Shown: positions 3,776-57,951 of the stretch, in pieces | How the letters are laid out: every line of letters begins with the position of its first letter | Position numbering within the stretch: the stretch's first letter is position 1 | Origin: Mobula hypostoma | Lineage: Eukaryota | Direction of reading: 5' to 3' | Length of the DNA stretch: 64,000 nt | NCBI RefSeq assembly: GCF_963921235.1 | Contig: NC_086097.1 | Span: 174,904,001 to 174,968,000, forward strand | Position numbers and translations under genes: made by a program | The notes under the pieces: model-generated | What the model was told of the DNA's origin: nothing | Databases searched by the model: none | What the model saw: the letters and a program-made list of their open reading frames with translations, nothing else

Positions 3776-4829
3776 AATCTTATCCTGAGACTGTAACCCC
3801 TTATTTCTAAACTCCTCAGCCAGGGAAAGACAGAATCTCATTTGTTGACCTTTCTGAGGTCATGCTTCTAAATTGTACAGATTGGGGACTTATCTCCTGT
3901 ATCATCCCTGCCTCAGCCTTCACACCCCCCTTTCCACACCGTACTCCATCTACCTCTCGTTTATTCCCCCTCTCTCTGTCTGCCTCCATCTCTCATTAAC
4001 CTGACTCTGCCTCCCCTCTCCATCTCTGCTCTCCTCCACTACCTGAAGCCCTTCTCAATCCACCAATCTCTTGAGACTCCTGTTTCACCTATTCCCTTCT
4101 TTTCCTTATACCATTCTTCTCAACTCCCCACTCTCAGTCCCGATGCTGGGTTTTGACCCAAGACATTGACAGTTCCTTTCCTCCTGATTCTTTCTTCGCA
4201 AATGCTGCCATTTCTGATGAGTGTTTCCGACACTAGAATTTTACGTAGATTTACATTGCCAGGTTGTTTGCTGCTGATGAATTCTTGGTGCACTCTACCT
4301 GTGATAAAAAAATATTTAATAATTAGGTAAACATATCAAAGTTATACACAATGATCTGCGCACGTGTTCTCTCCATGGCTCTGTGTGTCTGTAATAGGGA
4401 TCATGAAGCCAGTACAGGAGATGAACATGACATGTAGCCTATCCCCAAATGGTGATGAGTCTCTGAACTATTGAGCATTTCTTTCTTCAGTCTTTTATGG
4501 GGATCAATTACTGTGAGGAAGAGTCTTCATATTCTACTTGGCAAAGGCCACAGAATCGCAGGAGGGGGAAAAAAAATCTACCTGTAGTACAAGTGCTGAT
4601 TACCAAGCACTTCAGGTCACAGATATTCAAAAATAAAACTCCGCAGATGCAGGATATCTGAAATAAAATTGCTCCTTTACAGGAAGCATGTTGGAGGCTT
4701 TGGAGAGGTTCCAGATTAGGTTTGCCAGGAAACTGCGTGGATAAGAGGAAAGGATGGACAAATGTGTGTTGTTTTCTCTGTGTCAGAGGCTGAGGGGTGA
4801 TCTGACAGAAGCTTATACAGAGGAGGAGA

Positions 4830-14060: not shown

Positions 14061-15299
14061 ACATTTTCTAACAAGATGCTGGGTAGAAGGAGCTTCATTC
14101 CTCTGCGTTTCAGCCTGGAGTGGAGTCCATTCCTCCTGCCATGGCGATGTACCTTTGTCTGTTCAGTGGTTCCATACCTGCATGCATCACATGCAGAGTG
14201 GCATTTAGAAACTTAGTCATGCAGCAGAGAGGCAGGCCGTTCAGCTATCATGCCCATACGGAATTTTCAGCCCATCTACACTAATCCCATTAACCCGCAC
14301 TAGGACCGTATACCTCTAATGCCACTGAAACATAATAACTAGTTGGTTCCACCATCTCTTCTGGCATTGCATTCCAGATATCAACCACTTTCTGTGTAAA
14401 ACAAAAGCTTAACCCTCAAATACCCTGTAAAATGCCTTAAATCTATGCCCTCTTGTTTTGATTCCTGAACCCTATCTGTGCTTCTTGTCTTATACACCTA
14501 TATGTGTCACTCTCTAGTGAGCTTCATCACAAGGAAAACACACTCAGCCGATACAATCTCAGTCCATGGCCAAAGCCTTCCAATCTATTGAATCTCCTTT
14601 GCACTCTCTCCAATGCAGCCACATCTTTCCTCAGTAGGGTCCTGGCATTGCGGTTTCAACCCAAAATATTGACAATACCCCCTTGCCCAACAGATGTTGC
14701 TCAAACTGCTGAGTTCCTCCAGCAGGCTCTTTGTTGCTCTGGATTCCAGCATCTCCTGTGTCCACATCTTTCCCACAGTGTGGTGAGCAGTCTTGAACAC
14801 CATACTCGTGTGGCCCAAGCACTGCTTTGTAAATCTTTGCAAAACTGTAATGTTTGATGGCACCTTTCAAACTATGAACCCTACTACTAAAAAGTCTGGG
14901 GTAGCTGGGAGCCCCACCGCCTCCGGGTTCCCTTGCAAGCTGCACGTCATCTTGACTTGGAAATGTGTCATTGCCAAGTCAAACTCCTGGATCTGCCTCC
15001 TCAGCAGCACCAAGGGAACACCAGAAGGACTGCAGTTGTTCATAGAGGTAGCTACCCAAGGAGCAGTTGGGGATGCGCAATAAGTGCCCACCTCTGTATC
15101 ACTATTTTTGCCAAATATACCTTTGGAAAATCGGACTTCCGATTTCATCTTCATTGTGGCCACATTTCTGAAGTAGTTCATTGTAAATATATTGTCATTC
15201 ACAACATTTCCTTAGATTTTACTTTTTATTTTTTATTTATTGAGATACAACCCTTCAGTCTGTGCTGTGCAGCAATGCCCCGACTTAATCCTAGCCCAG

Positions 15300-15869: not shown

Positions 15870-16660
15870 CCCGCCATGACTCCCTTGACCATTTGTCCCT
15901 CCCCACTGATCTCCCTCCTGGCACTTATCCTTGCAAGTGGAACAAGTACCATACCTGCCCCTGGACCTCCTCCCTCACCACAGGTCAGGGCCCCAAACAG
16001 TCCTATCAGGTGAGGTGAGTCTGCTGGGGTCATCTACTGTATCTGGTACTCCCAATGTGGCCTCTTGGATATCGGTAAGACCCAATGTACATTGGGAGAC
16101 TGCTTCGCCGAGCACCTACACTCCATCTGCCAGAAAAGAGTAGGATCTCCCAGTGGCCACCCATTTTAATTCCACTTCCCATTCCCATTCCGATATGTCA
16201 ATCCATGTCCTCCTCTACTGCTGCGATGAGGCCACACTCAGGTTGGAGGGGCAGCTCCTTGTATTCTGTCTGGATAGCCTCCAACCTGATGGCATGAATA
16301 TCAATTTCTCAAACTTCCAGCAATGCCTCCCTCCCCCCACCCCCTTCACCATTCCCCATTCCCTTTTCCCTCTCACCTTATCTCCTTGCCTGCCCATCAC
16401 CTCCCTCTGGTGCTCCTCCCCACTTTTCTTCTTTCCATGGCCTTCTGTCCTCTCCTGTTAGGATTCCACTCTTCTCTAGCCCTGTATCTCTTTCACCAAT
16501 CAACTTCCCAGCCCTTTACTTCGCCCCTCCCCCTCCTCCTGGTTTCATCTATCACCTTGTGTTTGTTTCTTCCTTCCCTCCCCCAACCTTCTAACTCTGA
16601 CTCCCATCTTTTTTTCTTCAGTCCCGACGAAGGGTCTCAGCCCAAAATGTTGACTGTTTA
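15870..16660 (+). mobile_element. Penelope-like element 3' part: decayed GIY-YIG endonuclease plus terminal repeat with hammerhead-like motif
   Basis: 16030-16130 translates VIYCIWYSQCGLLDIGKTQCTLGDCFAEHLHSI (GIY-YIG type: VIY..C..C..YIGET.R.L..RF.EH). It is followed by PVATHFNS..HS, a pyrimidine tract and cagtcccgacgaagggtctcagcccaaaatgttgactg. Confidence 0.82.
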
Positions 16661-19219: not shown

Positions 19220-19970
19220 GGTTGCCTGAAAAAACAAAGAATTTGTATATATCTAGCATCTTCAAGAGCTCAGGGTTTCCCTGCATGCCTTACTGCAGAA
19301 GATACCACTTCTGAACGTGGTAATGTTGTCGTATAGAAATTGCGGAATATCTCACAGGGCATGAACATTGATTTCTCTAACTACTGGCAGTTTCTCCCCA
19401 CATCTTCCCTCCTCTCCTTTTCCATTCCCTATTCTGGTTCCCCTCATACCCTATTTCTTATCCTCATCTGCCCATCGTCCTTCTCTGGTTTCTCTCTTCC
19501 ATGGTCACTCTCCTCACAGCTTCTTACTTCAACCCTCCTCTTCCCCCTCCCCATCCTTCATCCACTTGTACCCTCCCACCTTCTTATCCTGTCATCTACC
19601 CTCATTCTTTTCCAGTCCTGATGAAAGGTCTCGGCCCAAAATGTCAATTGTTCATGGCCCTGCATGGATGCTACCTGATCTGCTGAGTTCCTCCAGCATT
19701 TTGCATGTGTAGACCTCCTGCTGATAATGTTTTATTGACGTTGGTTGTAGGGGATTTATATTGGCCAGGGGAGTTGAGATATCTGACTGTCAGCAAAGTG
19801 ATACGATAGGGTATTTTACATTCACTGGTGGAAAAGGACTGGACTTTCAACTATCATCTGACCCATGGCACTTCCAACAGTGCAGTACTCCTTCAGTAAG
19901 GCACTGGAGTGTCAGTGTGGACTGAATACCTGTGTCTCTGGTGTTGAACCCTATAAACCTTAAGTACTGT
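19220..19970 (-). mobile_element. Old Deu-SINE (SacSINE1/AmnSINE-like) in the putative NIPAL2 3' UTR, interrupted by a Penelope fragment
   Basis: Characteristic reverse-strand blocks cacttctgaacgtggtaatgttgtcgtatagaaa (~19305-19340) and ggcacttccaacagtgcagtactccttcagtaaggcactggagtgtcag (~19867-19916). Related copies at ~16720-16925 and ~60420-60605. Family assigned from memory. Confidence 0.6.
19345..19712 (+). mobile_element. Penelope-like terminal fragment with hammerhead-like motif
   Basis: Contains ggcatgaacattgatttctctaac (same block as 16291), a pyrimidine tract, ccagtcctgatgaaaggtctcggcccaaaatgtc, and gatgct.cctg..ctgctgagttcctccagcattttg. Confidence 0.8.
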
Positions 19971-27600: not shown

Positions 27601-30600
27601 GGGATGGGGATGGAATGGTTTTGACAGTGGGATGGGGATAAAATGGTTTTGGCCGTGGGATGGAATGGTTTTGGCCGTGGGATGGGGATGGAATGAATTT
27701 GGCTGTGGGATGGAGATGGAATGGTTTTGGCCGTGGGATGGAGATGGGATGGTATTGACCGTGGGATGGGGATGGAATGGTTTTGGCCGTGGATTGGGGA
27801 TGGAATGGTTTTGACCCTGGGATGGGATGGAATGGTTTTGGCTGTGGGATGCGGATGGAATGGTTTTGACCATGGGATGGGGATGAAATGGTTTTGACCA
27901 TGGGATGGGGATGGAATGGTTTTGACCATGGGATGGGAATGGAAAGGTTTTGGGGATGGGATGGTTTGGACTGGGATGGGGATGGAAAGGTTTTGGGGAT
28001 AGAAAGGTTTTGGGGATGGAATGGTTTTGGCTGCGGGATGGGGATGGAATAGTTTTGGCCGTGGGATGGGGATGGAATGGTTTTGGCCGTGGGATGGAGA
28101 TGGAATAGTTTTGGCCGTGGGATGGGGATGAAGTGGTTTTGACCGTGGGATGGGGATGGGATGGTTTTGACTGTGGGATGGGGATGGGGATGGAACGGAT
28201 TTGACCGTGGGATGGGGATGGAACAGATTTGACTGTGTGATGGGGATGGAATGGTTTTGACCGTGGGATGGGGATAAAGTGTTTTCGGCTGTGGGATGGA
28301 GATGGAAAGATTTTGGGGATGGAATGGTTTTGGTCATGGGCTGGGGATGGGGGTATGGAATGGATTTCGTATTTGACCGTGGGATGGGGATGGAACGGTT
28401 CTGACTGTGGGATGGGGATGGAATGTTTTTGGGAATTGGCTGGTTTTGACCGTGGGATGGGGATGGAAAGGTTTTGGGGATGGAATGGTTTTGGCCATGG
28501 GCTGGGGATGGGGAGATGGAACGGGTTTCGGATTTGACCGTGGGATGGGGATGGAATGGTTTTGACGGTGGGATGGGGATAAAATGGTTTTGGCTGTGGG
28601 ATGGGGATGAAATGCTTTTGGCCATGGGATGGGGATGGGATGGTTCTGACTGTGGGATGGGGATGGAATGGTTTTGGGGATGGGATGGTTTTGACCGTGG
28701 GATGGAGATGGAACAGTTCTGATTGTGGGATGGGGATGGAATGGTTTTGGGGATGGAATGGTTTTGGCCGTGGGCTGGGGATGGGGGGGATGGAACGGGT
28801 TTCGGATTTGCCTGTGGGATGGGGATGGAATGGTTTTGACAGTGGGATGGTGATAAAATGGTTTTGGCCGTGGGATGGAATGGTTTTGGCCGTGGGATGG
28901 AATGGTTTTGGCCGTGGGATGGGGATGGAATGAATTTGGCCGTGGGATGGAGATGGAATGGTTTTGGCCGTGGGATGGAGATGGGATGGTATTGACCGTG
29001 GGATGGGGATGGAATGGTTTTGGCCGTGGATTGGGGATGGAATGGTTTTGACCCTGGGATGGGATGGAATGGTTTTGGCTGTGAGATGCGGATGGAATGG
29101 TTTTGACCATGGGATGGGGATGAAATGGTTTTGACCATGGGATGGGGATGGAATGGTTTTGACCATGGGATAGGAATGGAAAGGTTTTGGGGATGGGATG
29201 GTTTTGACTGGGATGGGGATGGAAAGGTTTTGGGGATAGAAAGGTTTTGGGGATGGAATGGTTTTGGCTGCGGGATGGGGATGGAACAGATTTGACTGTG
29301 GGATGGGGATGGAACGGTTTTGACCGTGGGATGGGGATGGAATAGTTTTGGCCGTGGGATGGAGATGGAATAGTTTTGGCCGTGGGATGGGGATGAAGTG
29401 GTTTTGACCGTGGGATGGGGATGGGATGGTTTTGACTGTGGGATGGGGATGGGGATGGAACGGATTTGACCGTGGGATGGGGATGGAACAGATTTGACTG
29501 TGTGATGGGGATGGAATGGTTTTGACCGTGGGATGGGGATAAAGTGTTTTCGGCTGTGGGATGGAGATGGAAAGATTTTGGGGATGGAATGGTTTTGGCC
29601 GTGGGATGGGGATGGAACGGTTTTGACCATGGGATGGGGATGGAATGGTTTTGACCGTGGGATTGGAATGAAATGGTTTTGGCCATGGGATGGGGATGGA
29701 ATGGTTTTGACCGTGGGATGGGGATAAAGTGTTTTCGGCTGTGGGATGGAGATGGAAAGATTTTGGGGATGGAATGGTTTTGGTCATGGGCTGGGGATGG
29801 GGGTATGGAATGGATTTCGTATTTGACCGTGGGATGGGGATGGAACGGTTCTGACTGTGGGATGGGGATGGAATGTTTTTGGGAATTGGATGGTTTTGAC
29901 CGTGGGATGGGGATGGAAAGGTTTTGGGGATGGAATGGTTTTGGCCATGGGCTGGGGATGGGGAGATGGAACGGGTTTCGGATTTGACCGTGGGATGGGG
30001 ATGGAATGGTTTTGACGGTGGGATGGGGATAAAATGGTTTTGGCTGTGGGATGGGGATGAAATGCTTTTGGCCATGGGATGGGGATGGGATGGTTCTGAC
30101 TGTGGGATGGGGATGGAATGGTTTTGGGGATGGGATGGTTTTGACCGTGGGATGGAGATGGAACAGTTCTGATTGTGGGATGGGGATGGAATGGTTTTGG
30201 GGATGGAATGGTTTTGGCCGTGGGCTGGGGATGGGGGGGATGGAACGGGTTTCGGATTTGCCTGTGGGATGGGGATGGAATGGTTTTGACAGTGGGATGG
30301 TGATAAAATGGTTTTGGCCGTGGGATGGAATGGTTTTGGCCGTGGGATGGAATGGTTTTGGCCGTGGGATGGGGATGGAATGAATTTGGCCGTGGGATGG
30401 AGATGGAATGGTTTTGGCCGTGGGATGGAGATGGGATGGTATTGACCGTGGGATGGGGATGGAATGGTTTTGGCCGTGGATTGGGGATGGAATGGTTTTG
30501 ACCCTGGGATGGGATGGAATGGTTTTGGCTGTGAGATGCGGATGGAATGGTTTTGACCATGGGATGGGGATGAAATGGTTTTGACCATGGGATGGGGATG

Positions 30601-33600
30601 GAATGGTTTTGACCATGGGATAGGAATGGAAAGGTTTTGGGGATGGGATGGTTTTGACTGGGATGGGGATGGAAAGGTTTTGGGGATAGAAAGGTTTTGG
30701 GGATGGAATGGTTTTGGCTGCGGGATGGGGATGGAACAGATTTGACTGTGGGATGGGGATGGAACGGTTTTGACCGTGGGATGGGGATGGAATGGTTTTG
30801 GCCGTGGGATGGAGATGGAATAGTTTTGGCCGTGGGATGGGGATGAAGTGGTTTTGACCGTGGGATGGGGATGGGATGGTTTTGACTGTGGGATGGGGAT
30901 GGGGATGGAACGGATTTGACCGTGGGATGGGGATGGAACAGATTTGACTGTGGGATGGGGATGGAATGGTTTTGACGGTGGGATGGGGATGAAATGGTTT
31001 TGGCTGTGGGATGGAGATGGAAAGATTTTGGGGATGGAATGGTTTTGGCCGTGGGATGGGGATGGAACGGTTTTGACCATGGGATGGGGATGGAATGGTT
31101 TTGACCGTGGGATTGGAATGAAATGGTTTTGGCCATGGGATGGGGATGGAATGGTTTTGGCCGTGGGATGAGGATGGAATGGTTTTGTCCGTGGAATGGT
31201 GATGGAATGGTTTTGACTGTGGGATGGGGATGGAATGGTTTTGGCCGTGGGATGGAGGTGGGATGGTATTGACCGTGGGATGGAGATGGAATGGTTTTGG
31301 CCGTGGGATGGGGATGGAATGGTTCTGACCGTGGGATAGGGATGGAATGAACTTGGCCGTGGGATGGGGATGGAATGGTTTTGGCCGTGGGATGGAATGG
31401 TTTTGGCTGTGAGATGCGGATGGAATGGTTTTGACCATGGGATGGGGATGAAATGGTTTTGACCATGGGATGGGGATGGAATGGTTTTGACCATGGGATA
31501 GGAATGGAAAGGTTTTGGGGATGGGATGGTTTTGACTGGGATGGGGATGGAAAGGTTTTGGGGATAGAAAGGTTTTGGGGATGGAATGGTTTTGGCTGCG
31601 GGATGGGGATGGAACAGATTTGACTGTGGGATGGGGATGGAACGGTTTTGACCGTGGGATGGGGATGGAATGGTTTTGGCCGTGGGATGGAGATGGAATA
31701 GTTTTGGCCGTGGGATGGGGATGAAGTGGTTTTGACCGTGGGATGGGGATGGGATGGTTTTGACCGTGGGATGGGGATGGGGATGGAACGGATTTGACCG
31801 TGGGATGGGGATGGAACGGATTTGACTGTGGGATACGGATGGAATGGTTTTGACCGTGGGATGGGGATAAAATGGTTTTGGCTGTGGGATGGAGATGGAA
31901 AGATTTTGGGGATGGAATGGTTTTGGCCGTGGGATGGGGATGGAACGGTTTTGACCATGGGATGGGGATGGAATGGTTTTGACCGTGGGATTGGAATGAA
32001 ATGGTTTTGGCCATGGGATGGGGATGGAATGGTTTTGGCCGTGGGATGAGGATGGAATGGTTTTGTCCGTGGAATGGTGATGGAATGGTTTTGACTGTGG
32101 GATGGGGATGGAATGGTTTTGGCCGTGGGATGGAGGTGGGATGGTATTGACCGTGGGATGGAGATGGAATGGTTTTGGCCGTGGGATGAGGATGGAATGG
32201 TTTTGTCCGTGGGATGGTGATGGAATGGTTTTGACTGTGGGATGGGGATGGAATGGTTTTGGCCGTGGGATGGAGGTGGGATGGTATTGACCGTGGGATG
32301 GAGATGGAATGGTTTTGGCCGTGGGATGGGGATGGAATGGTTCTGACCGTGGGATAGGGATGGAATGAACTTGGCCGTGGGATGGGGATGGAATGGTTTT
32401 GGCCGTGGGATGGAATGGTTTTGGCCGTGGGATGGGATGGTTTTGGCCGTGAGATGGGATGGTTTTGACCGTGAGATGGGATGGTTTTGACCGTGGGATT
32501 GGGATGGAATGGTTTTGACCGTGGGATGGAGATGGGATGATTTTGACCGTGGGATGGGGATGGAAAGGTTTTGCGGATGGAATGGTTTTGGCCGTGGGCT
32601 GGGGATGGAATGGTTTTGGCCGTGGGATGGGGATGGAATGAACTTGGCCGTGGGATGGGGATGGAATGGTTTTGGCCGTGGGATGGGGATGGAACAGTTT
32701 TGACCATGGGATGGGGTTGGAATGGTTTTGGCTGTGGGATGGGTATGGAATGGTTTTGACTATGGGATGGGGATGGGGATAGAACGGATTTGACCGTGGG
32801 ATGGGGATGGAATGGTTTTGGCCGTGGGATGGGGATGAAATGGTTTTGGCTGTGGGATGGGGATGAAATGGTTTTGGCCATGGGATGGGGATGGAATGGT
32901 TTTGGCCATGGGATGAGGATGGAATGGTTTTAGCCATGGGATGAGGATGGAATGGTTTTGTCCGTGGGATGGGGATGGAATGGTTTTGACTGTGGGATGG
33001 AGGTGGAAAGGTTTTGGGGATGGAATGGTTTTGGCCGTGGGCTGGGGATGGAATGGTTTTGGCCGTGGGATGGGGATGGAATGAATTTGGCCGTGGGATG
33101 GGGATGGAATGAACTTGGCCGTGGGATGGGGATGAGATGGTTTTGGCCATGGGATGGAATGGTTTTGACCGTGGGATTGGGATGGAACAGATTTGACCGT
33201 GGGCTTGGGATGGAACAGATTTGACCGTGGGATGGAACAGATTTGACCATGGGATGGGGATAGAAAGGTTTTGGGGATGGAATGGTTTTGGCCGTGGGAT
33301 GGGGATGGAACAGTTTTGACCATGGGATGGGGTTGGAATGGTTTTGGCTGTGGGATGGGTATGGAATGGTTCTGACCGTGCGATGGTTTTGACCATGGGA
33401 TGGGGATGGGACGGATTTGGCCGTGGGATGGGGATGGGACGGATTTGGCCGTGGGATGGGGATGGGATGGTTTTGACCGTGGGATGGAGATGAAATAGTT
33501 TTGGCTGTGGGATGGGGATGGAACGGATTTGACCATGGGATGGGGATGGAATGGTTTTGACTGTGGGTTGGGCATGGAATGGTTTTGACAGTGGGATGGG

Positions 33601-34534
33601 GATGGAACGGTTTTGTCCATGGGATGGGGATGGAATGGTTTTGACCGTTTGACCGTGGGATGGAGATGAAATAGTTTTGGCTGTGGGATGGGGATGGAAC
33701 GGATTTGGCCATGGGATGGGGATGGAACGGATTTGACCGTGGGATGGGGATGGAACAGTTTTGACCGTGAGATGGGGATGAAACGGTTTTGGCCGTGGGA
33801 TGGGAATGGAAAGGTTTTGGGGATGCAATGGTTTTGACTGTGGGTTGGGGATGGAAAGGTTTTGTCCGTGGGATGGGGATGGCAATGGTTTTGACCGTGG
33901 GATGGGGATGTAATGGTTTTGGCCGTGGGATGGAATGGTTTTGACTGTGGGTTGGGCATAGAATGGTTTTGACAGTGGGATGGGGATGGAACGGTTTTGT
34001 CCATGGGATGGGGATGGAATGGTTTTGACCGTTTGACCGTGGGATGGAGATGAAATAGTTTTGGCTGTGGGATGGGGATGGAACGGATTTGGCCATGGGA
34101 TGGGGATGGAACGGATTTGACCGTGGGATGGGAATGGAACGGTTTTGACCGTGAGATGGGGATGAAACGGTTTTGGCCGTGGGATGGGAATGGAAAGGTT
34201 TTGGGGATGCAATGGTTTTGACTGTGGGTTGGGGATGGAAAGGTTTTGTCCGTGGGATGGGGATGGAAAGGTTTTGTCCGTGGGATGGGGATGGCAATGG
34301 TTTTGACCGTGGGATGTGGATGGAATGGTTTTGACCGTGGGATGTGGATGGAATGGTTTTGGTCGTGCAATGGGGATGGAATGGTTTTGACTGTGGGTTG
34401 GGCATGGAATGGTTTTGACAGTGGGATGGGGATGGAACGGTTTTGTCCGTGGGATGGGGATGGAATGGTTTTGACCGTGGAATGGGGATGGAATGGTTTT
34501 GTCCGTGGGATGGGGATGGAATGGTTTTGACCGT
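21608..34534. repeat. ~12.9 kb G-rich satellite/minisatellite, consensus 28-mer GGGATGGGGATGGAATGGTTTTG(A/G)CCGT with 17-, 22- and 34-nt variants and kb-scale internal duplications
   Basis: Directly visible tandem array with sharp ends. Identical ORF translations recur at fixed offsets (23136 vs 26865; 24767 vs 28474 vs 29924). Confidence 0.98.
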
Positions 34535-36049: not shown

Positions 36050-36289
36050 AAAACATAATTATAATTGTCCTAATATACATGGGTTCAAATCTTGTCTCTC
36101 AGCTCATTAAAGAACTGAAAGTAATGTAAGAGCTCTACATTTTAAGATTGTTAAGAACAATCTTAAATCTAGGCTGAAAGGTTCCTTGTTGGACTTCAAC
36201 CTGATTTAGTAGTTGATAAGTAAGCAGACATTTATATAGCACTTGCTATAACCAAAGAATCACGAGAAGAGCAATAATAACCAGAAGAG

Positions 36290-36500
36290 ACACTACAGAT
36301 GCTGGAAACTGGGGCAACATAAAAAGCACTGGAGAAACTCAATAGATCAGGTATCATTTCTGGAGGGAAATGGATAGTTTATGTTTTGGTTCGAGACCCT
36401 TCATCTCAGGTGAACAGTCTCGACCCAAAATGTCGACAGCCACTTCCCTCCAAAGATGATGCCTGCCCGCTGAGTTCTTCCAGTGTCTTTTGTGTTGCTA
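36290..36500. mobile_element. Palindromic Penelope-derived terminal-repeat element
   Basis: Arms 36314-36406 and 36408-36498 are imperfect reverse complements. Each carries the (tga)agggtctcg.ccc.aaa.gtcgac motif. Confidence 0.75.
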
Positions 36501-37319: not shown

Positions 37320-38145
37320 CTGTCTTCACATGCTGGGATAGATAACTCCCTATCTCACCGAGGGTTTGAGACCCGTCGGCTGCCCTCACCTGGTTTAGCC
37401 GGCTTGTCAAAGCCGCTGCGCAGGGTTTGGCCACTGTCCCATGCAAACAGCTATGAGGAGCCACAGGTGAGAGCTGAGTGCCAGGCAGGGAACCAAAGGT
37501 GGACAAACCACCTGAAAAGGACACGGCATGTTCCCCCACCGAGTTGTTCCAGTCCTTTTGGAAGCAAGGATCCATTCCTCAGGATCTTAAAGATGCGCTC
37601 GTCTGGCATACGGATGACATGACCTGCCCTCAGGGGTAGACTGATGGTAGACTTGCTCTAAAGAGAACTTCAGTGTCTGGTACTTTGTCTTGCCATCTGA
37701 TGCCTAATATTCTGCGAAGACAAGTCATGTGGAAATGGTTGAGCTGTCTTGCATGCCTTCTATACACAGTCCACGTTTCACAGGCATACAGGAGGGTAGT
37801 GAGTACCACGGCTCGGCTCTGTAGACCTTCAGTTTTGTTGCTGGACTGATCCCTTGACGTTCCCATACAGTGGAGCGCAGTCTACCGAAAGCAGAACTTG
37901 CTATTCTGCAGTTAACTTATGTAACAATAGTCACTGCTTGGGAGAAGGTGCTGCCAAGGTAAGTAAACTGGTCCACTGCCTGTAGTTTCTGTCCTTTGAT
38001 TGTGATTTTGGGTTCTGTGTACGGTGCATGAGGAGCAGGCTGGTGCATGATTTCTGTCATTTTGATGTTGATGGTGAGTCCAAAGTTGTCACAAGCCACG
38101 AAGAATTTGTCCGTATTGACTTGCATCTCTGGCTCTGAACCAGTA
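37320..38145 (-). mobile_element. RTE-clade LINE fragments
   Basis: FGLTINIKMTEIMHQPAP...LQAVDQFTYLGST and LLYACETWTVYRRHARQLNHFHMTCLRRILGIRWQDKVPDTEVL are typical of RTE ORF C-terminal regions. 37320-37545 resembles an RTE 5' region (lower confidence). Confidence 0.85.
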
Positions 38146-38280
38146 TTACTTTCAAATCTCTTACTATCGCTTTCTTCTGTTAGTCCTGATGAAGGGTTTC
38201 GACCCAAAACATTGACTGTACTTCTTCCAATAGATGCTGCCCGGCCTGCTGCGTTCCACCAGCATGTTGTGTGTTTTTCT
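38146..38280 (+). mobile_element. Penelope terminal-repeat fragment containing the best-folding hammerhead-like copy
   Basis: tagtcctgatgaagggtttcgacccaaaacattgactg followed by gatgctgcccggcctgctgcgttccaccagcat. Confidence 0.8.
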
Positions 38281-38644
38281 ATGACCATATGCCTTCCACA
38301 CTATCCTCATGATGAATAATTACCAGTGAGGCTCAGACAGGACAGTGAGTACAGAGGTAACTGAAACATCTGGTTTATTACCAACCCTATACAGTCAAAC
38401 CTTCATATTCTTAACTGCCTGAACAATCTATTAAAAATAATTCTTGTGACTTTACTATCACTGTGCTTAAAGGCAATATCCAAAAATAGCCATTACATCA
38501 AACATTTGGTTATGACAGCACAGTTTTATTTTTTTCTCTTCTAGTCACTTCACAGTCAGCCATGATTCAGTAGTAAAATCTTGACTCACCAAAGCCAGAA
38601 GGATGGAATTCCATCCTTAACTATCATTATGCCAGGCTGATAAT

Positions 38645-39130: not shown

Positions 39131-39344
39131 TTGGTCTTTCAGTAAAAGATACCTATTGTAGGTGAGTGAATCTGGAGTAACACACACAAAATGCTGAAGG
39201 AACACAGCAGGTCAGTCTGGATCTTTGGAGGGAAATGAACAGTCGACGTTTTGAGCCAGAACACTTAATCAGGACTGGAAAGGAAGGGAGCAGAAGCCAG
39301 AATAAAAGGGTGGGGTAGGAGCAAGAACTGGCAGGTGATGGATG

Positions 39345-42300
39345 TTTCTGATCACGTCCAAGATATCCTGGTGGGAAGGAGAACAACCAGAGGTAGTGGT
39401 ACATATTGGCAGGAAAAGGGAGGAGGTCCTGTAAGCAGACTACAGGGAGTTAGGTAAGAAGTTGAAAAGCAGGACCACAAAGTTAATCATCTCAGGATTA
39501 CCGCCTGTGTCATGCGACAGTGAGTATAGGAATAGAATGAGATGGAGGATAAATGCGTGGGTGAGGGATTGGAGCAGGGGACAGGGATTCAGATTTCTGG
39601 ATTATTGGGACCTCTTTTGGGGCAGGAATGACCTGTACAAAAAGGACAGGTTGCACTTGAATCCCGGGGGACCAATATGCTGTTGGGGAGGTTTGCTGAG
39701 GCTGTTGAGAGTTTAAACTAGGATTGCTGGGGGTGGAAACCAAACTGAAGAGACAGAGGAAGAGGCGGTTGGCTCACAAACAGAGAAAGCTTGGAGACAG
39801 TGTGAGAGGGAGGATAGGTAAGTGATCAAGAAGGGACAAACTCAGACCGATGGTTTGAAATGTGTCTATTTATAGACCACCCAATAGTAACAGGGACATC
39901 AAGGAGCAGATAGGAAGACAGGTTCTGGAAAGGTGTAATAATAACAGGGTTGCCATGGTGGGAGATTTTAATTTCCCAAATATTAATGGCATGTTCCTAG
40001 AGCAAGGGGTTTAGATGGGGTGGAATTTGTTGGGTGTGCTAAAGAAGGTTTCTTGACACAATATGTAGATAAGCCTACAAGAGAGGCTGTACTTGATCTG
40101 GTATTAGGAAATGAACCTGGTCAGGTGTCAGATCTCTCAGTGGGAGAGCATTTGTGTGGAGTTCTGCATAGGTACGTTCCAATGAGACAGGGAAGTTATG
40201 GTAGGGTACAGGAACCGTGGTGTACAAAGGCTGTTTTAAATCTAATCAAGAAGAAAAGAGCTTACGAAAGGTTCAAAAAGCAAGGTAATGACAGAGAGCT
40301 AGAAGATTATAAGGCTAGCAGGAAAGAGCTCAAGAAAGAAATTAGAAGATCCAGAAGGGGCCATGAGAAGGCCTTGGTGGACAGGATTAAGGAAAATCTT
40401 TTACTTTTACTTTACTTTATTGTTGCCAAACAATTGATACTAGAGCGCACAATCATCACAGCGATATTTGATTCTGCGCTTCACGCTCCTGGAGTACAAA
40501 TCGATAGTAAATATTAAAACTTTAAATTATAAATCATAAATAGAAAATAGAAAAGGGAAAGTAAGGTAGTGCAAAAAAAATGAGAGGCAGGTCCGGATAT
40601 TTGGAGGGCAGGGCCCAGATCTGGGTCAGGATCATTCAGCAGTCTTATCACAGTTGGAAAGAAGCTGTTCCCAAATCTGGCCGTATGAGTCTTCAAGCTC
40701 CTGAGCCTTCTCCTGGAGGGAAGAGGGACGAAAAGTGTGTTGGCTGGGTGGGTCATGTCCTTGATTATCCTGGCAGCACTGCTCCAACAGCGTGTGGTGT
40801 AAAGTGAATCCAAGGACAGAAGATTGGTTTGTGTGATGTGCTGCGCTGTGTTCACAATCTTCTGCAGCTTCTTCCGGTCTTGGCCAGGACAACTTCCATA
40901 CCAGGTTGTGATGCACCCTAGAAGAAGGCTTTCTACGTTGCATCTATAAAATTAGTGAAGGTTTTAAGGGGACAGGCCAAATTTCTTCAGCATTCTCAGG
41001 AAGTAAAGGTGCTGGTGGGCCTTCTAAACCCCAAGATATTCTACAAGTATGTTAAGAGCAAGAGGATAAGATGTGAGAGAATAGGAGCAATCAAGTGTGA
41101 CAGTCGAAAAGTGTATATGGAACCAGAGGAGATAGCAGAGGTACTTAATGAGTACTTTGCTTCAGTATTTACTACAGAAAAGGATCTTGGTGATTGTAGG
41201 GATGACTTACAGTGGACTGAAAAGCTTGAGCATGTAGATATTAAGAAAGAGGATGTGCAGGAGCTTTTGGAAAGCATCAAGTTGGCTAAGTCACCTGGAC
41301 TGGACTAGATGTACCCCAGGCTACTGTGGGAGGTGAAGGAGGAGATTGCTGAGCCTCTGGCAATGATCTTTGCATCATCAATGGGGCCGGGAGAGGTTCT
41401 AGAGGATTGGAGGGTTGTGGATGTTGTTCCATTATTCAAGAAAGGGAGTAGAGATACCCAGGAAATTATAGACCAGTGAGTCTTACTTCATTGGTTGGTA
41501 AGTTGATGGAGAAGATCCTAAGAGGCAGGATTTATGAACAGCTGGAGAGGCATAATATGATTAGGAATAGTCAGTATGGCTTTGTGAAAGGCAGATCATG
41601 CCTTATGAGCCTGATTGAATTTTTTGAGGATGTGACTAAACACATTGAAGGTAGAGCAGTAGGTGGTGTATATGGATTTCAGCAAGGCATTTGACAAGGC
41701 ACCCCATGCAAGGCTTATTGAGAAAGTAAGGAGGCAAGGGATCCAAGGGGACATTGCTTTGTGGATCCGGAACTGGCTTGCCCACAGAAGGCAAAGAGTG
41801 GTTGTAGATGGGTCATATTCTGCATGGAGATCAGTCACCAGTGGTGTACCTCAGGGATCTGTTCTGGGACCCCTACTCTTCATGATTTTTATATATGACC
41901 TGGATGAAGTAGTGGAGGGATGGGTTAGTAAATCTGATGATGACATAAATGTTGGAGGTGTTGTGGATAGGGTGGAGGGCTGTCAGAGGTTACAGCAGGA
42001 CATTGATAGGATGCAAAACTGGGCTGAGAAGTGGTAGATGGAGTTCAACCCAGGTAAGTGTGAGGTGGTTCATTTTGGTAGGTCAAATATGATGACAGAA
42101 AATAGTATTAATGGTAAGACTCTTGGTAGCATGGAGGATCAGAGGGATCTTGGGGTCCAAGTTCATAGGACACTCAAGGCTGCTGTGCAGGTTGACTCTG
42201 TGGTTAAGAAAGCATACAGTGCATTGGCCTTCATCAATTGTGGGATTGAGTTTAGGAGCCGAAAGGTAATGTTGCATCTATATAGGACCCTGGTAAGACC

Positions 42301-42836
42301 CCACTTGGAGTACTGTGCTCAGTTCTGGTCGCCTCACTATAGGTAGGATGTGGAAACCATAGAAAGGGTGCAGAGGACATTTACAAGGATGTTGTCTGGA
42401 TTGGAGAGTATGCCTTGTGAGAATAAGTTGAGTGAACTCGGCCTTTTCTCCTTGGAGCGATGGAGGATGAGAAGTGACCTGATAGAGGTGTATAAGATGA
42501 TGCGAGGCATCGATCATGTGGATAATCAGAGACTTTTTCCCAGGGCGGAAATGGCTAGCACGAGAGGGTACAGTTTTACAGTGCTAGAAGTAGGTACAGA
42601 GGAGATATCGGGGTTAAGTTTTTTTTACGCAGAGAGTGGTGAGTGCGTGGAATGGGCTGCCGACAACAGTGGTGGAGATGGATACGATAGGGTCTTTTAA
42701 GAGACTCTTGGATAGGTATATGGAGCTCAGAAAAATAGAGGGCTATAGGTAACCCTAGTTAATTTCTCAGGACATTTTCTGCACAGCTTTGTAGGCCGAG
42801 GGGCCTGTATTGTGCTGTAGGTTTTCTATGTTTCTA
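39345..42836 (+). mobile_element. Long CR1 LINE: ORF1 SGNH/GDSL-esterase remnant, internally deleted endonuclease, RT and 3' end
   Basis: ORF1: VVVHIG..KSRTTKLIISGLPPV..NAWVRDW..GQGFRFLDYW..LYKKDRLHLN. ORF2: MVGDFNFP, VLDLVLGN, YMDFSKAFDK.PH, SGVPQGSVLGPLLF, RPHLEYCAQFWSP. Tail ttttctatgtttcta. Confidence 0.93.
40398..41022 (-). mobile_element. Rex1/Babar-like 3' fragment with (AAAGT)n-type tail nested in the CR1
   Basis: HPANTLFVPLPSRRRLRSLKTHTARFGNSFFPTVIRLLN. The host CR1 reading (RIKEN|PKIFYKYV) resumes after the insert. Confidence 0.88.
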
Positions 42837-44334
42837 ATCCAGGTGAGAGGAGGTAGGTAGAAAGGAAGGGGAGAGAGGGGAGGTGGAAGGTGGAAGAAGG
42901 AAGAAGCAGAGTTGAACCTGATGTAATCTGGGACATCTGAGAATCTCACTCCCACCATACTTGCTTTGCACAGAGGGTAAGAATGGATATTTTAGATGCT
43001 ATCTTCATAAATATGGTTCCTCTGTGTGAGACGACACTATTTCCTATGTCTGTAAGAATGTGCAAGCAAATGTTTTTCTATTTTAAGTATTCCAAATATT
43101 TCATTAAGAATTTGCAGCTTGTCATGACTGATGTTTTGCATATTAAGTGCTAATTTGAAGGGATTCAGCCTCATCATTGCAAAATAAATTGAGTATATTA
43201 TCCTCAGAGTCTTGGCCAAAATGTATGGCTAAGAGCAACAGATTATCTGCTATCACTTTGCAGTTTTTTGGGAGATTCTCTTGTGCAAAAAATGGCTACC
43301 TTGCTTGTGATGGCTACCTCATTGTCACAAAGTGCATTTCAGCTACTGGCCAAGAAATACATTCAGATACAAAGGTTTGTGGTTTCTTGAGCTATCTGTA
43401 CATTACCTCAGAATGGAAAAGATGTGACTTCTAAAGCAACATTGGAATAAATGACAGGGCAATTTTTAAAAACCTAAGAGCAATCTCTTTTCAATCCAGT
43501 ATGTTTTTCCAAAATGAGGTCATGAAGAAACACTTTTAGATATTTCTAACTGGCGAGTGAAAATGTATGAGGAGAGTCAACATTTCGACCTGTGACCCGA
43601 TGAAGAATTTCAGCCTGAAATGTTGACTGTTTGTTCCTCTTTATAGATGCTGCCCGACCTGCTGAGATCCTCCAGCATCTGTAGAATTTCTTTAAGATTG
43701 CAGAGTAGAGACATAATCTGGCTTTAAAATATCTAATTCTATTAAGTGACATGGTTTGATTGATCATTAAATTAATTTTGTTTTAATTGTTATTTTCAAC
43801 TCTGGGCTGAACATTAATGGAGATAAGGGACACTGCATCAGAACTTCTAAAATTCCTGCCATTTCCCCACCCCACACCACCACGCGTGTACGCACAAGCA
43901 GCAACTGCTTGATCCACTGAGTTCCTCCTGCAGTTTAATTTTTGCTCTGGATTCTTATATCTGCAGTCTCTTATGTTATCGGTAGCGATTGGCTGTAAAT
44001 GTTTCCCTGAAGTAACTATTGCTTTGCATATCAAGTGGTAACTTCAAGAAATTCCTCCTCACCATCACAAAGGACAAATGACTTTTCCTCAGCTCTTTGG
44101 CCAAAATGTGTCCCCTGGCTGTGAAAGGCACACAGCAAGTCTTTTAATCTATCCCTGGAATGGTGGAAAACTAGGTAGAGGAAAGCATTTTCTGAAGCTT
44201 TAGTGCCCTCTAAAGGGCTATATTTTATACACCAGCTCAAAATATTTAGAACTTGGTGTATTCAAAAATTTCTATTAATGTCCAGAAACAAATGCAGTTG
44301 TGCCAGGACAGTGTAAAGACACAGAATCACTATT

Positions 44335-45090
44335 AATTAATATTAATGGCTCCGTCTAAGTAGACAATGGATGTGCCCGGTTTAGGACTCAATTGGGTGT
44401 GGAACAGCGTCGGCTGTGGCTGAATAAGCCGATTCTTGAGCGGCAGTCTTTGGCACAGCTGCGGCACAGGAAGGCTGATGGCTGCGGCTGGGGAGTCACT
44501 GCCACAGCTTTCCTTCTCTCTCTTCTGTCCGACCACAGTCGAGGTCGTTTTTCCTCTGCATTGGTAATGCCTGTACGTACAGCCTGTCGCCAGGTACAGC
44601 GATTTGCAGCTGTCTCTTCCCAAGTGTCCACCCCGATATCAGACTTCAGGTCACGTTTACAGACATCCCTGTAACGCAGCAGTGGTCACCCTGTGGGCCG
44701 GGATCCTGTGGCGAGTTCTCCGTATAGGATGTCCTTGGGGATGCGGCCATCTTGCATGCGGCAGACGTGGCCAAGCCAGCGCAGTCATCGCTGTGTGAGA
44801 AGGACATACATGCTTGGCATGCTGGCCTGGTCCAGGATACCCTTGTTTGGCACGCGGTCTTTCCAGGAAATGCCCAGGAACTGATGCAAGCACCGTAGGT
44901 GGAAACCGTTGAGGTGGTGCTCTTGGTGCGCGTAGGTGGGCCAACTCTCGCTGCCGTAGAGAAGAGTACTCAGTACGCAGGCTCTGTACGCTGCAATCTT
45001 GGTGGCTGTGGTGAGTTTCTTGTTTCTCCACACTCCCTCTGACAGCTTGGCCATAGCAGCAGCGGCTTTCCCTATTCGCCTGTTGAGCTC
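44335..45090 (-). mobile_element. RTE-clade LINE 3' portion, relatively young
   Basis: LSTLLYGSESWPTY..HHLNGFHLRCL..ISWKDRVPN, plus the C-terminal zinc finger FLCRSCAKDCRSRIGLFSHSRRC. CpG-rich. Confidence 0.9.
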
Positions 45091-46294
45091 TGGATAAATT
45101 ACAAAAATAAGTAATGCAGTAAATAGAAATAGAGGTTGTGTTCATAGACCGTTAGAAAGTATGATGGCGAAGGGGAAGAAGCTGTTCCTGAATCATTGAG
45201 GGTGGGTTGTCAGGCACGTGTACCTCCTTCTCAATGGTGGTAACAAGAAGAGGGTATGGGTGGGTCCTCACTGAAAGATGCCACCTTCTTGGAGCATCGT
45301 CTTTTGAAGATCTCTCGATGGTGGGGAGGGTTGTGCCTGTGGTGGAGCTGGGTGAGTCTACAATCCTCTGCAACTTCTTTTCATCCTGCACATTGGGGAC
45401 TCCATACTAGGAGGCAATGCAACTAGTCATAATGCTCTCCAAATTGCAACTGTATATCAGGGCAGCACTGGTAGCATTTTGTGTTCCTTCAGCAGTTGTC
45501 TCCAATCTTCATACTCCCTCCCCCATCTTGCATTGCTCTGATGCACTCTCCCATCTTCTGACAGCACCTTCCCTTGTAACTGAAGAAGCTACACCTGTTC
45601 TACCTCCTCCATTCTGCATTCTAAACAAGTTCCAGCTGAAGCAATGATTTACTTATACTTCTGTGTTCATAATCTGTGCTCATCTCTGAGGATACTTAAC
45701 TGAGAATAGATCTGTTCAGTTATATATATTAACCAAGACTCCCAATACCTGAAATTTTAATTTCAGATTTTTGGTGCTTGTGTGTTTTTTTTTCCCATGT
45801 ACATAAACTTTAAATTTCTAAAAAAAAGTTAACACAGGCATAAAACAAATAACATTTATCCCAGCAGTCTTATATAGTGATATAGTTTTCATAGTGATAA
45901 ACTCAATTGCACTGACTTACTGTTTAATTCATTCTATGTGGGCTTAATCTCTCATAAATCCTCTGGATTCAAACACTGATTACAATTAAACAAACAAGAG
46001 TTCAGTTTAATGTCAGTAAAATATATTGCAGTCACAATGAATTTCAACTACGTGCAGATCAATGCAAGGCAATCTTGTCAGCACTGCATGGCTGGAAATA
46101 GCAAATAAGAAACAAATCTGTTCAGAGAGTTATCTTTGAGTCAATTAGCATCAGAATTCAAACTCAGCTTAACAGGATGTACCATTTAATTGAAGACAAG
46201 AGCTCTGGCCATTGGAGAGAGAATGTAAACAGTGAACTTCAGACAAGCTTTGAGATACCGCCTGAAACTTGCACAAGTATCTAGTAGCATCTTT

Positions 46295-48870: not shown

Positions 48871-49275
48871 CTAAAGAGAAATATGGTTAGTCTGTAGAAC
48901 AAATGGGTAAAACTTCAATATAATGTTATCAAGAGAATAATATACAAGCCTTCTAAGACAACTACAATAAACTATGATGAAGCCCAGGCTGGAATCTGGC
49001 GCAAAGAATAAACTGCTGGAGGAACTCAGCAGGTCAAATTGTGTGGGGGAAGCGGGGTGGTGAAAGAATTGTCAATGCTCCTGATTGTGATTATATATCA
49101 GAACTCAAATGTCTTGACTCTTACATTTTGTTCTGATCCTGACGTAGCATCTTAACAAAATATGTCAACAGTCCCTTTCCCTTCACAAAAGACAAAGCCC
49201 ATGCTCATTTTTCAAAAATCTGCTAGTTTGCAATAAATTACATTAGTTCAGGTAGATCTTTAAATGGCACAAAAA

Positions 49276-50597: not shown

Positions 50598-50752
50598 CTC
50601 TTGTATTTGTCCATTAGCTCTTTCTCAGTCTCCTCACTGTGCCGCATGCCAGCTGGACAGTCTGGAAAATCATCAGGGAAATGTGGGATTCCCTGATACT
50701 GAGAATGCTTAACTCCTTCTTGCAAACCTCCTGCTCGTATACCCCTATAGAT
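50598..50752 (-). CDS. POP1: POP1 coding exon (POPLD domain region); not shown in the supplied ORF track
   Basis: Acceptor tatgtcAG and donor GTaagc. Length 155 nt. Translates [51 protein letters not shown](R), with conserved IYRG.R.GGL and [10 protein letters not shown] motifs. Confidence 0.95.
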
Positions 50753-53700
50753 CTGACATAATAGTCACAAAATTTCATACATGATTAAAACCTCAAAACA
50801 TGGACATTTTACCTACTGGAAAGAAGGGAGGAATTCAAAGAAACAGAGTAGACAGCATCTTTAACTATTGGGTTAATTGAGGGAGGACATAGGAGTGGTA
50901 CAGGTTAAACAGCTCTGGATAGGAGACTGGAGGTGATAGCGGATAAAGTAATGAGTCAGCCTCCCATTACAGCTAAAACAAGCTGCTGGAGGAACTCAGT
51001 GAGTCAGGCAGCACCTGTACAAGGAAATGGACAGTTGATTTCAGGTCGAGACCCTTCACTTGTACCAAAAGAGTACAGGGAAGATAGCTAGTGTAAAAGC
51101 TGGCATGAAATACCTAACATTAGAGGTGGGTAAGATTGCAAAAATGAAAATTAAATGTTCTTCATTTAAAAATATAATTAAAGACAGTCAGCATAGATTT
51201 GTACAAGTCATGTCTCATCTTATGAATTAGAGTTATTTGAGAAAGGATTTCAGTACATTGAAAAGAGAAAAGCATTCGATAAGATACTGCTTTGTGCATT
51301 AATGGCAAGTTCATAATATGCAGTATTAAAAGTATCAGCACTACAACAGGTAGTTGAAGATTTTTGGAGGACCAAGAACAATACCGACTAATCGACTTTT
51401 AATGACTTGAACAACGCTTGCCCCACTGTAAAACAACACAGGTGTCGATCTCAAAAGATAACTAAATAATCTGGCCTTGGTTTACAGGATACAATAGAAA
51501 AATGTACAGACAAAACAAAAAGACAAGCATGGTTAGCTGCCAGGAGGTCTGCAGACGAGTTAAGAGATTAAGTAGAATTAGAAGAGGTCAAGCAACACAC
51601 ACAAAATGCTGGAGGAACGCAGCAGGCCAGGCAGCATCTATGGAAAAGAGTACAACTGACATTTCCGGCCAAGGCCCTTCATAGGGACTAGTTTTTAGAC
51701 GAGGTCAAGGCCACTTGGCCCAAGTAATCAAGTCAGTGTTTGTGATGCATTGGAGACTCCTCCAATCTCCCTTTTAAACACTTTGAAATAATTCCTTCTA
51801 GTTTTCACTGCGATAGTGAATTCTATATCCTGAGCACTCTCGAGGGAAAAGGGCTTACTCTGAATCCACTTCTGATTTCCTTCAAAATATCTCAAATTGA
51901 AAGCATATTTCCCATTATATGAGACACTTTCCTTGTGTGTACTCCATTGAAAGCCTCCATAACTTTGAAAATAATCTGGAGCCACTTTCAAGACACTGGG
52001 AAGATGACAAATGAAATTTAATGCTGGGAAATTAGAAGTTTTGGAACAAGGAACAAGAACATAAATCCAGTAAATGAAAAATCTTTAAAAGCAAGAAAAG
52101 CAGACGGATTGAAGGAATCCAGATAAGTCTTTACCAGTGACAAGTTGACAAGGCTATCTGATAAAGGAAAATAGAACTTAAGTTTTCAAACTGGATTCCA
52201 AATAAGGATAGTGCTGAAGTTAATTACTATATTACTGGCTCACACAAGATTACAAATGCCTGACTTATGTACAACCCTGTACATAATGACAAACATTTGG
52301 GAGACCAGGGGGATAATTTGTCAGCTGTTATGGGGCTGCAGGTACTGTATCCTCTGCCACTTGAGAACTCAGTTTGCACCAATATCATTGCAATTTGCAG
52401 AGAAATTCAAATGGTCGAGTTCAATACCCTGGCTTAACTACACAACACACAAGGTGTTGGAGGAATTTGGCCGATCAGGCAGCATCTTTGGAGGACAATG
52501 AACAGTTGATAGTTTGGGTTGAGGCCCTTCATCTGAACTGATACATTTAACTACACATTACTCTTGATTGATTTAGATTTGTATTTAAATACGCATATTG
52601 CCGGATAGCCACATTTCAAACTTGTGAATGCATAACAACGACAAAAACACCTTTGGCTCCCGAGAAGTTGTCACCTTCCCCACTTTGTTTTCTGTGCTGT
52701 GAAACAATTCTCAATATGCTCGCCTGTTCTCTATTCCTCAGTGTACGCCAATCTTGTTGACCAACTCCTGCATGGAGCCATACAAGAAGTGTTCAGTTAG
52801 GAGGGAAAACTTGGTAATTGGGGTTTCCTTTACCAGGGCATGGGTCAGACGACCTGACAGATGGTCTCTCTGACAAGGATTGTAAACTGGGTAAAGGTGG
52901 GACAAATAAAGGCAGGAGGTGAAAAGTCAAAGGAAATATGCAAAGAAACCTTTTTTTAAAAAAAGAGTAGGTGCCAGGAATCTGCTGTCAGGGGAGATGG
53001 TGGAGGCTGATACAATAGATATATTTAAGCACTTCTTAGGTAGGTGCATGAATATGCAGAGAATGGAGGGATATGGACCATGGGAAGGCAGAAGGGACAA
53101 TTAGGTGTCATGAACTTAATTATTTCAGTACAATAACAAGGGCTGAAGGATTGTCCCCATGTTGGACTGTTCTATGTTCTTAAATTATTTTTGTTGATTG
53201 GTGAATTAAACCAGAGCAAATAATAGTAATGAATTTATCAATCAAATGAATGAGGTGGAAGAACACATTAAATATAGTCATAGAAAAATACAGCACAGAA
53301 GCGGGCCCTTCGGCCCATCTAGTCCATGCCAAAACCATTTAAACTGCCTACTCCCATCGACCTGCATGGGATCATTGACCTTCATACCCCTACTATCCGT
53401 GTACCTATCTAAAATTCACTTAAACAGTGAAATTTGAATTCATGTGCACCATTTGTGCTGGCAGCTCATTCTACACTCTTACGACCGTCTGAGTGAAGTT
53501 CCCCTTAAAACTTTTCACCTTTCACCCTCAATCCATGACCTCTGTTTGCAGTCCCACCCAACTTCAGTGGAAAAATCCTCCTTGCATTTACCCTGTCTAT
53601 ACCCCTCATACTTTTGTACACCTCTATCAAATCTCTTCTCAATCTTCTACGTTCTAAGGAATAAATTCCTAACCAATTCAACCTTTCCTTATAACTCAAG

Positions 53701-57536: not shown

Positions 57537-57812
57537 GCGCCATGGTAGTGTAGTAGCTAGCGCGATGCTATTACAACTTGGGCTGTTGGAGTCTGGAATT
57601 CAATTTGACGTCCTTGGTGAGGAGTCTGTATGTCCTCCCTGTGGAATGCATCAGTTTCCCCTGGGTATACCCATTTTCTCCTACAGTTCAAAGACATACC
57701 AGGTTGGTGAATTATTCATTGTAAAATGTCCCGCGGGTCAAATTGGGGTTGTTAGAGTTTGCTGCTGAAAGGGCCAGAAGGCCTACTCCGCACTGTATCA
57801 TTAAGTAATAAA
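57537..57812 (+). mobile_element. V-SINE (HE1-like)
   Basis: tRNA-like head ggcgccatggtagtgtagtagctagcgcgatgcta, a V-domain-like core, and tail gggccagaaggcctactccgcactgtatc. Confidence 0.7.
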
Positions 57813-57951
57813 TAACCTCCTGTGTGGCACAGTTTTGCAACTAGCACCATTAGGAAAGGAAAACTCAACCTAAGTTTTGAACTACAACCAAGAACAATAC
57901 ACAAGACATGCAGACAGATCTAAAGTTCAATAATACTTCACACAACATTAC

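Follow-up and report, generated by a model that had tools for sequence, protein, structure and literature searches.

The sequence at 38182-38217 of this Mobula hypostoma contig resembles a hammerhead ribozyme, and the locus raises the question of what carries such a motif, whether it could still cut, and how it came to be inserted. The whole 64,000-nt stretch of DNA, referred to here as the window, was analysed together with public sequence data. The focal sequence is very probably a mutated minimal type I hammerhead from the terminal repeat of a Penelope-like retrotransposon that is present in high copy number and likely belongs to the Neptune clade; it is predicted not to cleave.

The letters and parts given for the motif in the initial annotation (stem I, the CUGAUGA box, a 4-bp stem II and a UUCG loop) were confirmed at 38182-38217 on the plus strand. 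The helix I arms occupy 38182-38185 and 38214-38217, or 5 bp if the U-G pair 38181/38218 is counted; CUGAUGA at 38186-38192 is followed by one extra A, the 4-bp stem II and the UUCG loop, and on the 3' side AAAA replaces GAAA before C-AUU. Part by part, this anatomy matches the published consensus of the minimal type I hammerheads (PMC4209133), the class to which the motif had been assigned. Core numbering follows PMC3088659.

38181..38218, plus strand: focal minimal hammerhead motif, with G12>A (38206), a broken palindrome (38211 A) and a predicted cut after 38213
38148..38276, plus strand: whole focal insertion, comprising a pyrimidine-rich upstream part of about 33 nt, the motif and a short tail

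The limits of the insertion, about 38148-38276, follow from contig depth, which spans 38150 to about 38275, and from loose ends at 38274; a target-site duplication was looked for at its flanks and none was found. G12 is the general base of the hammerhead, and the values reported in PMC2553840 for G12A range from a >500-fold to an approximately million-fold slowing of cleavage. The predicted self-duplex energy of the focal palindrome is +2.8 kcal/mol versus -3.1 for the reconstructed palindrome, and the focal monomer is predicted to fold into a rod, with the core paired to the helix III strand, at -8.6 kcal/mol versus -7.6 for the open form. From G12>A and the broken palindrome the focal copy is predicted to be dead.

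A LINE reverse-transcriptase-like fragment (37917-38147, minus strand) adjoins the 5' end of the focal insertion and a second lies at 44785-45141 (minus strand), both without Pfam support. We take these two fragments to be RTE-like. A crude search for membrane-protein exons over positions 1-46000 of the window gave nothing convincing.

The focal motif is one of 12 copies in the window. All seven other copies claimed by the initial annotation are present, within 1-4 nt of where it had placed them, and four further copies were found at 4135 (plus), 14638 (plus), 36402 (plus) and 36412 (minus).

4135..4172, plus strand: diverged motif copy, absent from the earlier list
14631..14761, plus strand: 131-bp diverged mini-copy with a long tail and a 12-bp target-site duplication (14619-14630, 14762-14773)
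16619..16656, plus strand: motif copy after the endonuclease remnant, with U4>C and G12>A, without a tail
19613..19650, plus strand: motif copy with upstream part and tail, with G12>A and G10.1>A
36288..36499, both orientations: head-to-head inverted pair of motifs 36375-36412 (minus) and 36402-36439 (plus), whose junction falls within the CUGAUGA box, with a long tail on one side and a short tail on the other
39240..39277, minus strand: motif copy with upstream part and tail, the sole window copy with an intact ACGU palindrome, with G8>U and G12>A
43592..43629, plus strand: short copy starting within helix I/core, with U4>C and G12 intact
50976..51060, minus strand: short copy starting inside the CUGAUGA box, with a 2-nt deletion, sense in a POP1 intron
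51593..51694, minus strand: 102-bp mini-copy (motif 51653-51690) with a 15-bp target-site duplication containing one mismatch (51695-51709, 51578-51592), sense in a POP1 intron
52445..52546, minus strand: 102-bp mini-copy (motif 52503-52540) with an 11-bp target-site duplication (52547-52557, 52434-52444), sense in a POP1 intron

The column counts omit 51060 (deletion) and 14638 (diverged) and use the 10 gap-free copies. Each of these 10 was recovered by a profile of the other nine (E 1.5e-10 to 1.7e-3), against a top match of only E 0.14-1.7 in the reversed window. The word CTGATGA is not enriched (13 observed versus 15.4 expected), so the evidence for the family is homology among its copies and not the box. 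Weaker traces were found at 49137 (plus) and 9935 (minus), with tail-only matches at 49036 (minus) and 43905 (plus), all at E 2e-4 to 3e-3. Older and more diverged relatives of the repeat, with other loops and tails, lie at 9851-9935 (minus), 10438-10479 (plus) and 49137-49189 (plus). An 8-nt repeat beside the inverted pair was considered as a target-site duplication and rejected, as it is not at the ends of the pair.

The repeat extends beyond its 38-nt motif, which is followed by a conserved tail, and 5 of the 12 copies also carry the pyrimidine-rich upstream part. The tails end about 63 or about 90 nt past the predicted cut site, giving two 3' ends about 27 nt apart. When contigs of four public runs were aligned to 38150-38310 at 80% likeness, the repeat was found in 9401, 8933 and 6011 contigs of DNA-type or unlabelled runs from three organisms and in 1115 contigs of a putative RNA run, numbers that, like the aligned depths, do not translate into copies. 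The abundance of the family is nevertheless clear, and the very high copy number proposed earlier is borne out by these thousands of contigs. Besides the focal letters, the only letters that the family carries at 10% or more of depth at these three positions are G at 38206 (28-46%), G at 38211 (28-47%) and C at 38213 (33-48%); these shares are not true frequencies, because the alignment favours the focal letters, as seen from double changes that are frequent in the window and never reach 10%. No alternative letter reaches 10% of depth at 38186-38197, and intact-core letters make up less than half of the depth in all four runs. The UUCG loop is real in the focal copy but private to it: 83-92% of the depth reads C at 38198, so that the family loop is CUCG, and the fourth stem II pair is mostly U-G (85-94% of depth).

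The nature of the carrier element is indicated by the copy at 16619, which lies behind a broken reading frame on the same strand.

15896..16326, plus strand: broken C-terminal Penelope-like ORF (linker and GIY-YIG endonuclease) in three frames with one stop, located by tblastn with P0001 aa 224-371
16327..16618, plus strand: pyrimidine-rich 3' region between the ORF and the motif

The GIY-YIG remnant noted upstream of this copy at 16030-16130 is thus present but larger, and ends about 295 nt before 16619. It is 62-83% identical to aa 224-371 of the Mobula protein P0001 (E 9e-51, tblastn). A search with the fragment 16144-16338 returned five related proteins among 12 candidates, all from Mobula or Hypanus, with 73-84% identity. 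P0001, P0002 and P0004 match the Pfam GIY-YIG family PF01541 at E 5e-4 to 2e-3, with scores that fall short of the curated cut-off; of the other two relatives, one has only a weak RNase H match and the other has no Pfam match; the ORF fragments of the window itself matched no Pfam family. P0001, P0002, P0004 and P0005 contain a CX2-5CxxC linker, as does L001, a metagenome locus described below, and the window remnant has lost one Cys of it. The Cys/His positions of the GIY-YIG CCHH were read by eye in the relatives; the window remnant is frameshifted, with one Cys lost. A Penelope reverse transcriptase is absent from the window. P0001 aligns to the L001 frame at 47% over 382 aa, and that frame matches RVT_1 at E 5e-5, below the cut-off. 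Linkage to the endonuclease within the window is limited to one of the 12 motif copies. The GIY-YIG relatives, the linker and the place of the motif behind the remnant on the coding strand bear out the Penelope-like carrier that had been suggested.

Judged from its sequence, the carrier likely belongs to the Neptune clade, with a linker that also fits Nematis: the CX2-5CxxC linker is described in Neptune and Nematis, and Penelope and Poseidon are described as lacking it (PMC8557442). Neptune is the likelier of the two, since a preprint reports only Neptune and Poseidon from vertebrates (bioRxiv 10.64898/2026.07.22.740005). Neptune-clade elements as described by Craig et al. 2021 (PMC8557442) and Arkhipova et al. 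2013 (PMC3846280) share with the ray element the C-terminal GIY-YIG domain and linker zinc finger, 5' truncation, an inverted 5'-truncated partner, a tail on one arm and short target-site duplications. The rotifer elements in particular form head-to-head pairs with a long tail on one arm (PMC3846280), as at 36288-36499. Unlike these elements, the ray repeat shows no microsatellite target at the three duplicated sites.

The same kind of element was described by Cervera and De la Pena 2014 (PMC4209133). Their minimal hammerheads share with the ray family the CUGANGA box, the extra nucleotide before stem II, the G10.1-C11.1 pair, GAAA and UH, a loopless palindromic 15.2-16.2, a short helix I and a U-rich upstream region; they also occur mostly as solo dispersed copies, with some opposite-strand pairs, in thousands per genome. 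The ray family differs in that its 4-bp stem II is at the short end of the described range and every window copy is decayed. The ray repeat belongs to this described kind; the searched portion of the 2014 supplement holds no shark, skate or Callorhinchus entry.

Decay has a distinctive pattern. The earlier observation that no copy has a fully intact core holds: a strict descriptor gave 0 matches in the window, each of the 10 gap-free copies is defective at one or more core positions, and no intact ray copy was seen among the window copies or the aligned contigs. Across four CpG sites in these copies only 7 of 40 are intact, and 30 of the 33 altered dinucleotides are TG or CA (manual count). 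The palindrome reads ACGU in one copy (39277), with TG in five, CA in three and TA in one. The occurrence of both TG and CA at these sites points to CG as the ancestral dinucleotide, and from such pairs and the family alleles we infer by reconstruction an ancestral core that was probably intact. Nine of 10 copies have an A as the additional nucleotide preceding stem II, and pair 10.1-11.1 is G-C in six and G-U in one. The initial annotation attributed most defects to CpG decay; this accounts for G12 and the palindrome, but for only 8 of 22 core-nucleotide defects, all of them G12>A. The remaining 14 are not CpG-type, and seven of these are at U4 (in the copies 4135, 16619, 43592, 51690, 52540, 36402 and 36412), which is intact in three of the 10 copies, C in four and A in three, making C the plurality letter. 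The C and A at U4, unexplained by CpG decay, are possible subfamily variants.

Such a spectrum could also arise if the motif, though of hammerhead descent, had already been disabled in the source elements of most ray copies (A12, C4 or A4 subfamilies), and now served the terminal repeat only in a structural or protein-binding role, or were carried as a passenger. The excess of G12>A (8/10) over C11.1>T (1/10) and the altered U4 in 7/10 would fit this reading, as would the unaffected in vitro insertion of hammerhead mutants reported in PMC11167929 and the Naiad elements, which thrive without the motif (PMC8557442). However, when three more copies are included the CA:TG ratio is 9:3 (manual count), which is not significant; G still makes up 43-46% of the depth at 38206 in three runs despite the bias toward A, and at U4 every alternative letter stays below 10%. 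Moreover, three of the altered U4 positions coincide with 5' junctions, and U4C is a natural hammerhead variant with reduced activity (PMC3088659). We consider a source that was already disabled unlikely, and regard decay of the minimal hammerhead after insertion as the better account.

The ends of the copies bear on how they were inserted. Target-site duplications of 15, 11 and 12 bp were found on three of the 10 single copies tested and not for the other seven; a score of at least 11 was reached by 0.07% of 1489 random pairs. The three flanked copies (102, 102 and 131 bp) start 4-7 nt before helix I, and these short copies were inserted as mini-copies. Seven of the 12 copies start within about 15 nt of the helix I edge, in a sample in which detection favours copies that include the motif. 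None of the 12 window copies starts at the cut site, and no pile at that site was seen among the loose ends listed; all window copies carry the motif uncut.

A transcript start, a splice junction or a reverse-transcriptase stop at helix I would explain this boundary. A pyrimidine tract with YAG within helix I is present in 5/5 copies that keep the upstream part, and helix I also marks the end of an intron in Drosophila virilis (PMC4209133). A splice acceptor at helix I nevertheless gained no support, as the loose-end consensus ends in CAA. Loose ends before 38184 numbered 28/1115 in the putative RNA run versus 200/9401, 191/8933 and 154/6011 in the other runs, counts in which true junctions cannot be separated from upstream parts of other subfamilies. 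We tentatively suggest that the 5' base of helix I may be a discrete template end, where a reverse transcriptase primed in the tail would stop after about 100 nt, at a transcript start or an intron end. If this is true, the ribozyme fold, and not the cut, would set the size of a mass-produced mini-retroelement of 100-130 bp, and whether helix I is present would depend on splicing. No paper on a helix I boundary was found in the literature search.

The same ends might instead mark a distinct SINE- or retrozyme-like family, non-autonomous and mobilised in trans by the Penelope protein, whose fixed 5' end would lie at helix I. The three duplicated mini-copies and the seven starts near helix I would be expected of such a family, and non-LTR retrozymes are reported as non-autonomous Penelope derivatives bearing a type I hammerhead of Penelope terminal-repeat origin, including in one cartilaginous fish (bioRxiv 10.64898/2026.07.22.740005). 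Retrozymes are, however, tandem units each with an intact motif, whereas the ray copies are solo or inverted and broken, and no tandem array covers any motif copy in the window. The mini-copies also differ in tails and leaders, so they have no common master, and long copies with the same tails carry the upstream part. We judge a separate family quite unlikely and favour short insertions of the Penelope-like element itself.

On this preferred reading the life cycle can be sketched in steps. On the coding strand, the motif follows the endonuclease frame at a distance of about 295 nt. In the parent element a single motif would fold into an inactive rod, and in a tandem transcript two motifs could pair through the ACGU palindrome and build helix III; lone minimal motifs are reported not to cut and dimers to cut weakly (PMC4209133). 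The cut after GUC would be slow and, on the model of the anole element, aided by the element-encoded protein, and the reverse transcriptase would prime inside the tail of uncut RNA, which would make cutting unnecessary for insertion. The 3' ends of the insertions fall about 63 or about 90 nt past the predicted cut, and some gain 11-15 bp target-site duplications. After insertion, CpG decay would strip G12 and the palindrome, with the remaining changes accumulating neutrally.

The Anolis carolinensis Poseidon element (PMC11167929, Frangieh et al. 2024) offers a comparison for these steps. Like the ray element it has a motif in the terminal repeat, two downstream ends owing to an optional tail, and uncut copies; its reverse transcription starts about 85-92 nt after the cut, whereas the ray ends lie about 63 or 90 nt downstream of the predicted cut. 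In the account of PMC11167929 the anole motif requires the element's protein in order to cut, reverse transcription is primed within the tail, hammerhead mutants still insert in vitro, and the RNA-seq data contain no reads ending at the cut. The two differ in that the Poseidon clade, as described, lacks the CX2-5CxxC linker present in the ray proteins, and activity has been demonstrated for the anole element, whereas cutting by the ray family is putative.

A chance resemblance in an ordinary repeat tail is very unlikely, even though several tests internal to the family are silent. Besides the unenriched CTGATGA word, the Rfam hammerhead models gave no match in the window, a null that is uninformative because the same models miss intact motifs in four control loci. 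Helix pairing within the family holds in 78% of cells versus 14-41% when slid, but the claim that stem II varies while keeping its pairing did not survive: the variation is a one-sided U-A/U-G change, and covariation in 11 window copies is 0.240 versus 0.253 shuffled, with 311 of 500 shuffles as high. The initial annotation looked to a consensus with GAAAC-GUC and to stem covariation; the G, G and C alleles are present at 28-48% of depth, and covariation is absent within the family and present only across distant families. Single-copy folding was no better than shuffles (z -1.15 to +1.10, 8 stretches). Two-strand folding, with the plurality C at position 4 as reference, gave a plain duplex and not the active dimer, which this method cannot show.

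Distant families provide what the window lacks. We scanned 31 of 64 metagenome parts with a pattern of the core around a free 6-nt middle, leaving helix I and position 17 free, and obtained 121 loci with 129 matches and 91 distinct intact motifs; pattern scans of viral contigs and prokaryotic genomes gave 0 matches. The window profile recovers none of these loci at E 0.01, so they represent other families and not ray DNA. Helix I has at least 3 pairs in 58 of 87 scorable motifs versus 0-3/87 when slid, and position 17 is G in 0/90, counts that are not independent events since the motifs form few related families. The end of a related endonuclease lies upstream on the same strand of nine of the 91 motifs, that of L001 among them, with eight of the nine at 81-138 nt, and downstream of none; the other 82 have no endonuclease match upstream. 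In an alignment of four window copies with nine loci picked by eye from the 91 for their differing helix I arms, 29 two-sided cells were counted versus 12.8 shuffled, and two-sided changes occur in all five helix I pairs. Against chance, then, distant families keep the core while both sides of helix I change, and the place and strand agree with the published motif. L001 contains a frame with reverse transcriptase and GIY-YIG; an intact motif follows 130 nt after the stop of this frame, and a second copy, inverted, lies on the 5' side. The element at L001:1061-3608 is nearly complete and its 5' repeat is inverted, and back-to-back intact motifs 26 nt apart occur in other distant families (L008:1643-1721, L021:3001-3079), resembling the inverted pair of the window.

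The host gene of the window is POP1, of which five 3' coding exons lie on the minus strand from 60870 to 46298 with 98-100% identity to the Mobula hypostoma protein; the last coding exon is 100% identical to it over 167 aa and 85% to the sawfish protein. Three short motif copies, all without the pyrimidine tract, lie sense in the POP1 intron 50752-57949, and the focal copy keeps both stems, which might point to co-option by the host for cutting or processing POP1 or a neighbouring transcript; this is extremely improbable, as every copy has core defects and the focal copy lies about 8 kb beyond the POP1 stop, on the opposite (plus) strand, with differences from the family that are ordinary in kind.

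As a mutated minimal hammerhead of a Penelope-like element, the focal repeat brings batoid fishes into a published class and contributes a very abundant family of repeats, without changing any view. Our search, which had subscription papers, Repbase and Dfam outside its scope, found only the retrozyme preprint for cartilaginous fish as a description of hammerheads or Penelope elements in rays or sharks. The wider interest concerns the role of Penelope hammerheads, as the sole element tested depends on its protein for cleavage yet inserts uncleaved, by the account of PMC11167929. Ray genomes hold thousands of natural junctions around one motif and so could show whether the template is cut, where it starts, and whether subfamilies with a dead core spread; such a junction study requires the genome and not the focal copy.

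Several other features of the window were noted. A 13-kb satellite at 21608-34534 has a 28-bp base unit, higher-order repeats and a G-rich plus strand (GC skew about 0.73), and its long stop-free frames are a by-product of the satellite. A perfect 131-bp inverted duplication (4981-5111 / 5277-5407) has arms of 100% identity 165 nt apart. A tRNA-like sequence at 62724-62791 (minus, Rfam E 6e-7) may be a tRNA gene, a pseudogene or a SINE head. The hairpin at 49268-49350 matches two microRNA models below their cut-offs and is presumably a small inverted-repeat DNA-transposon derivative. A broken LINE reverse transcriptase lies at 41663-42700 (plus, RVT_1 E 2e-13), with several related relics elsewhere in the window.
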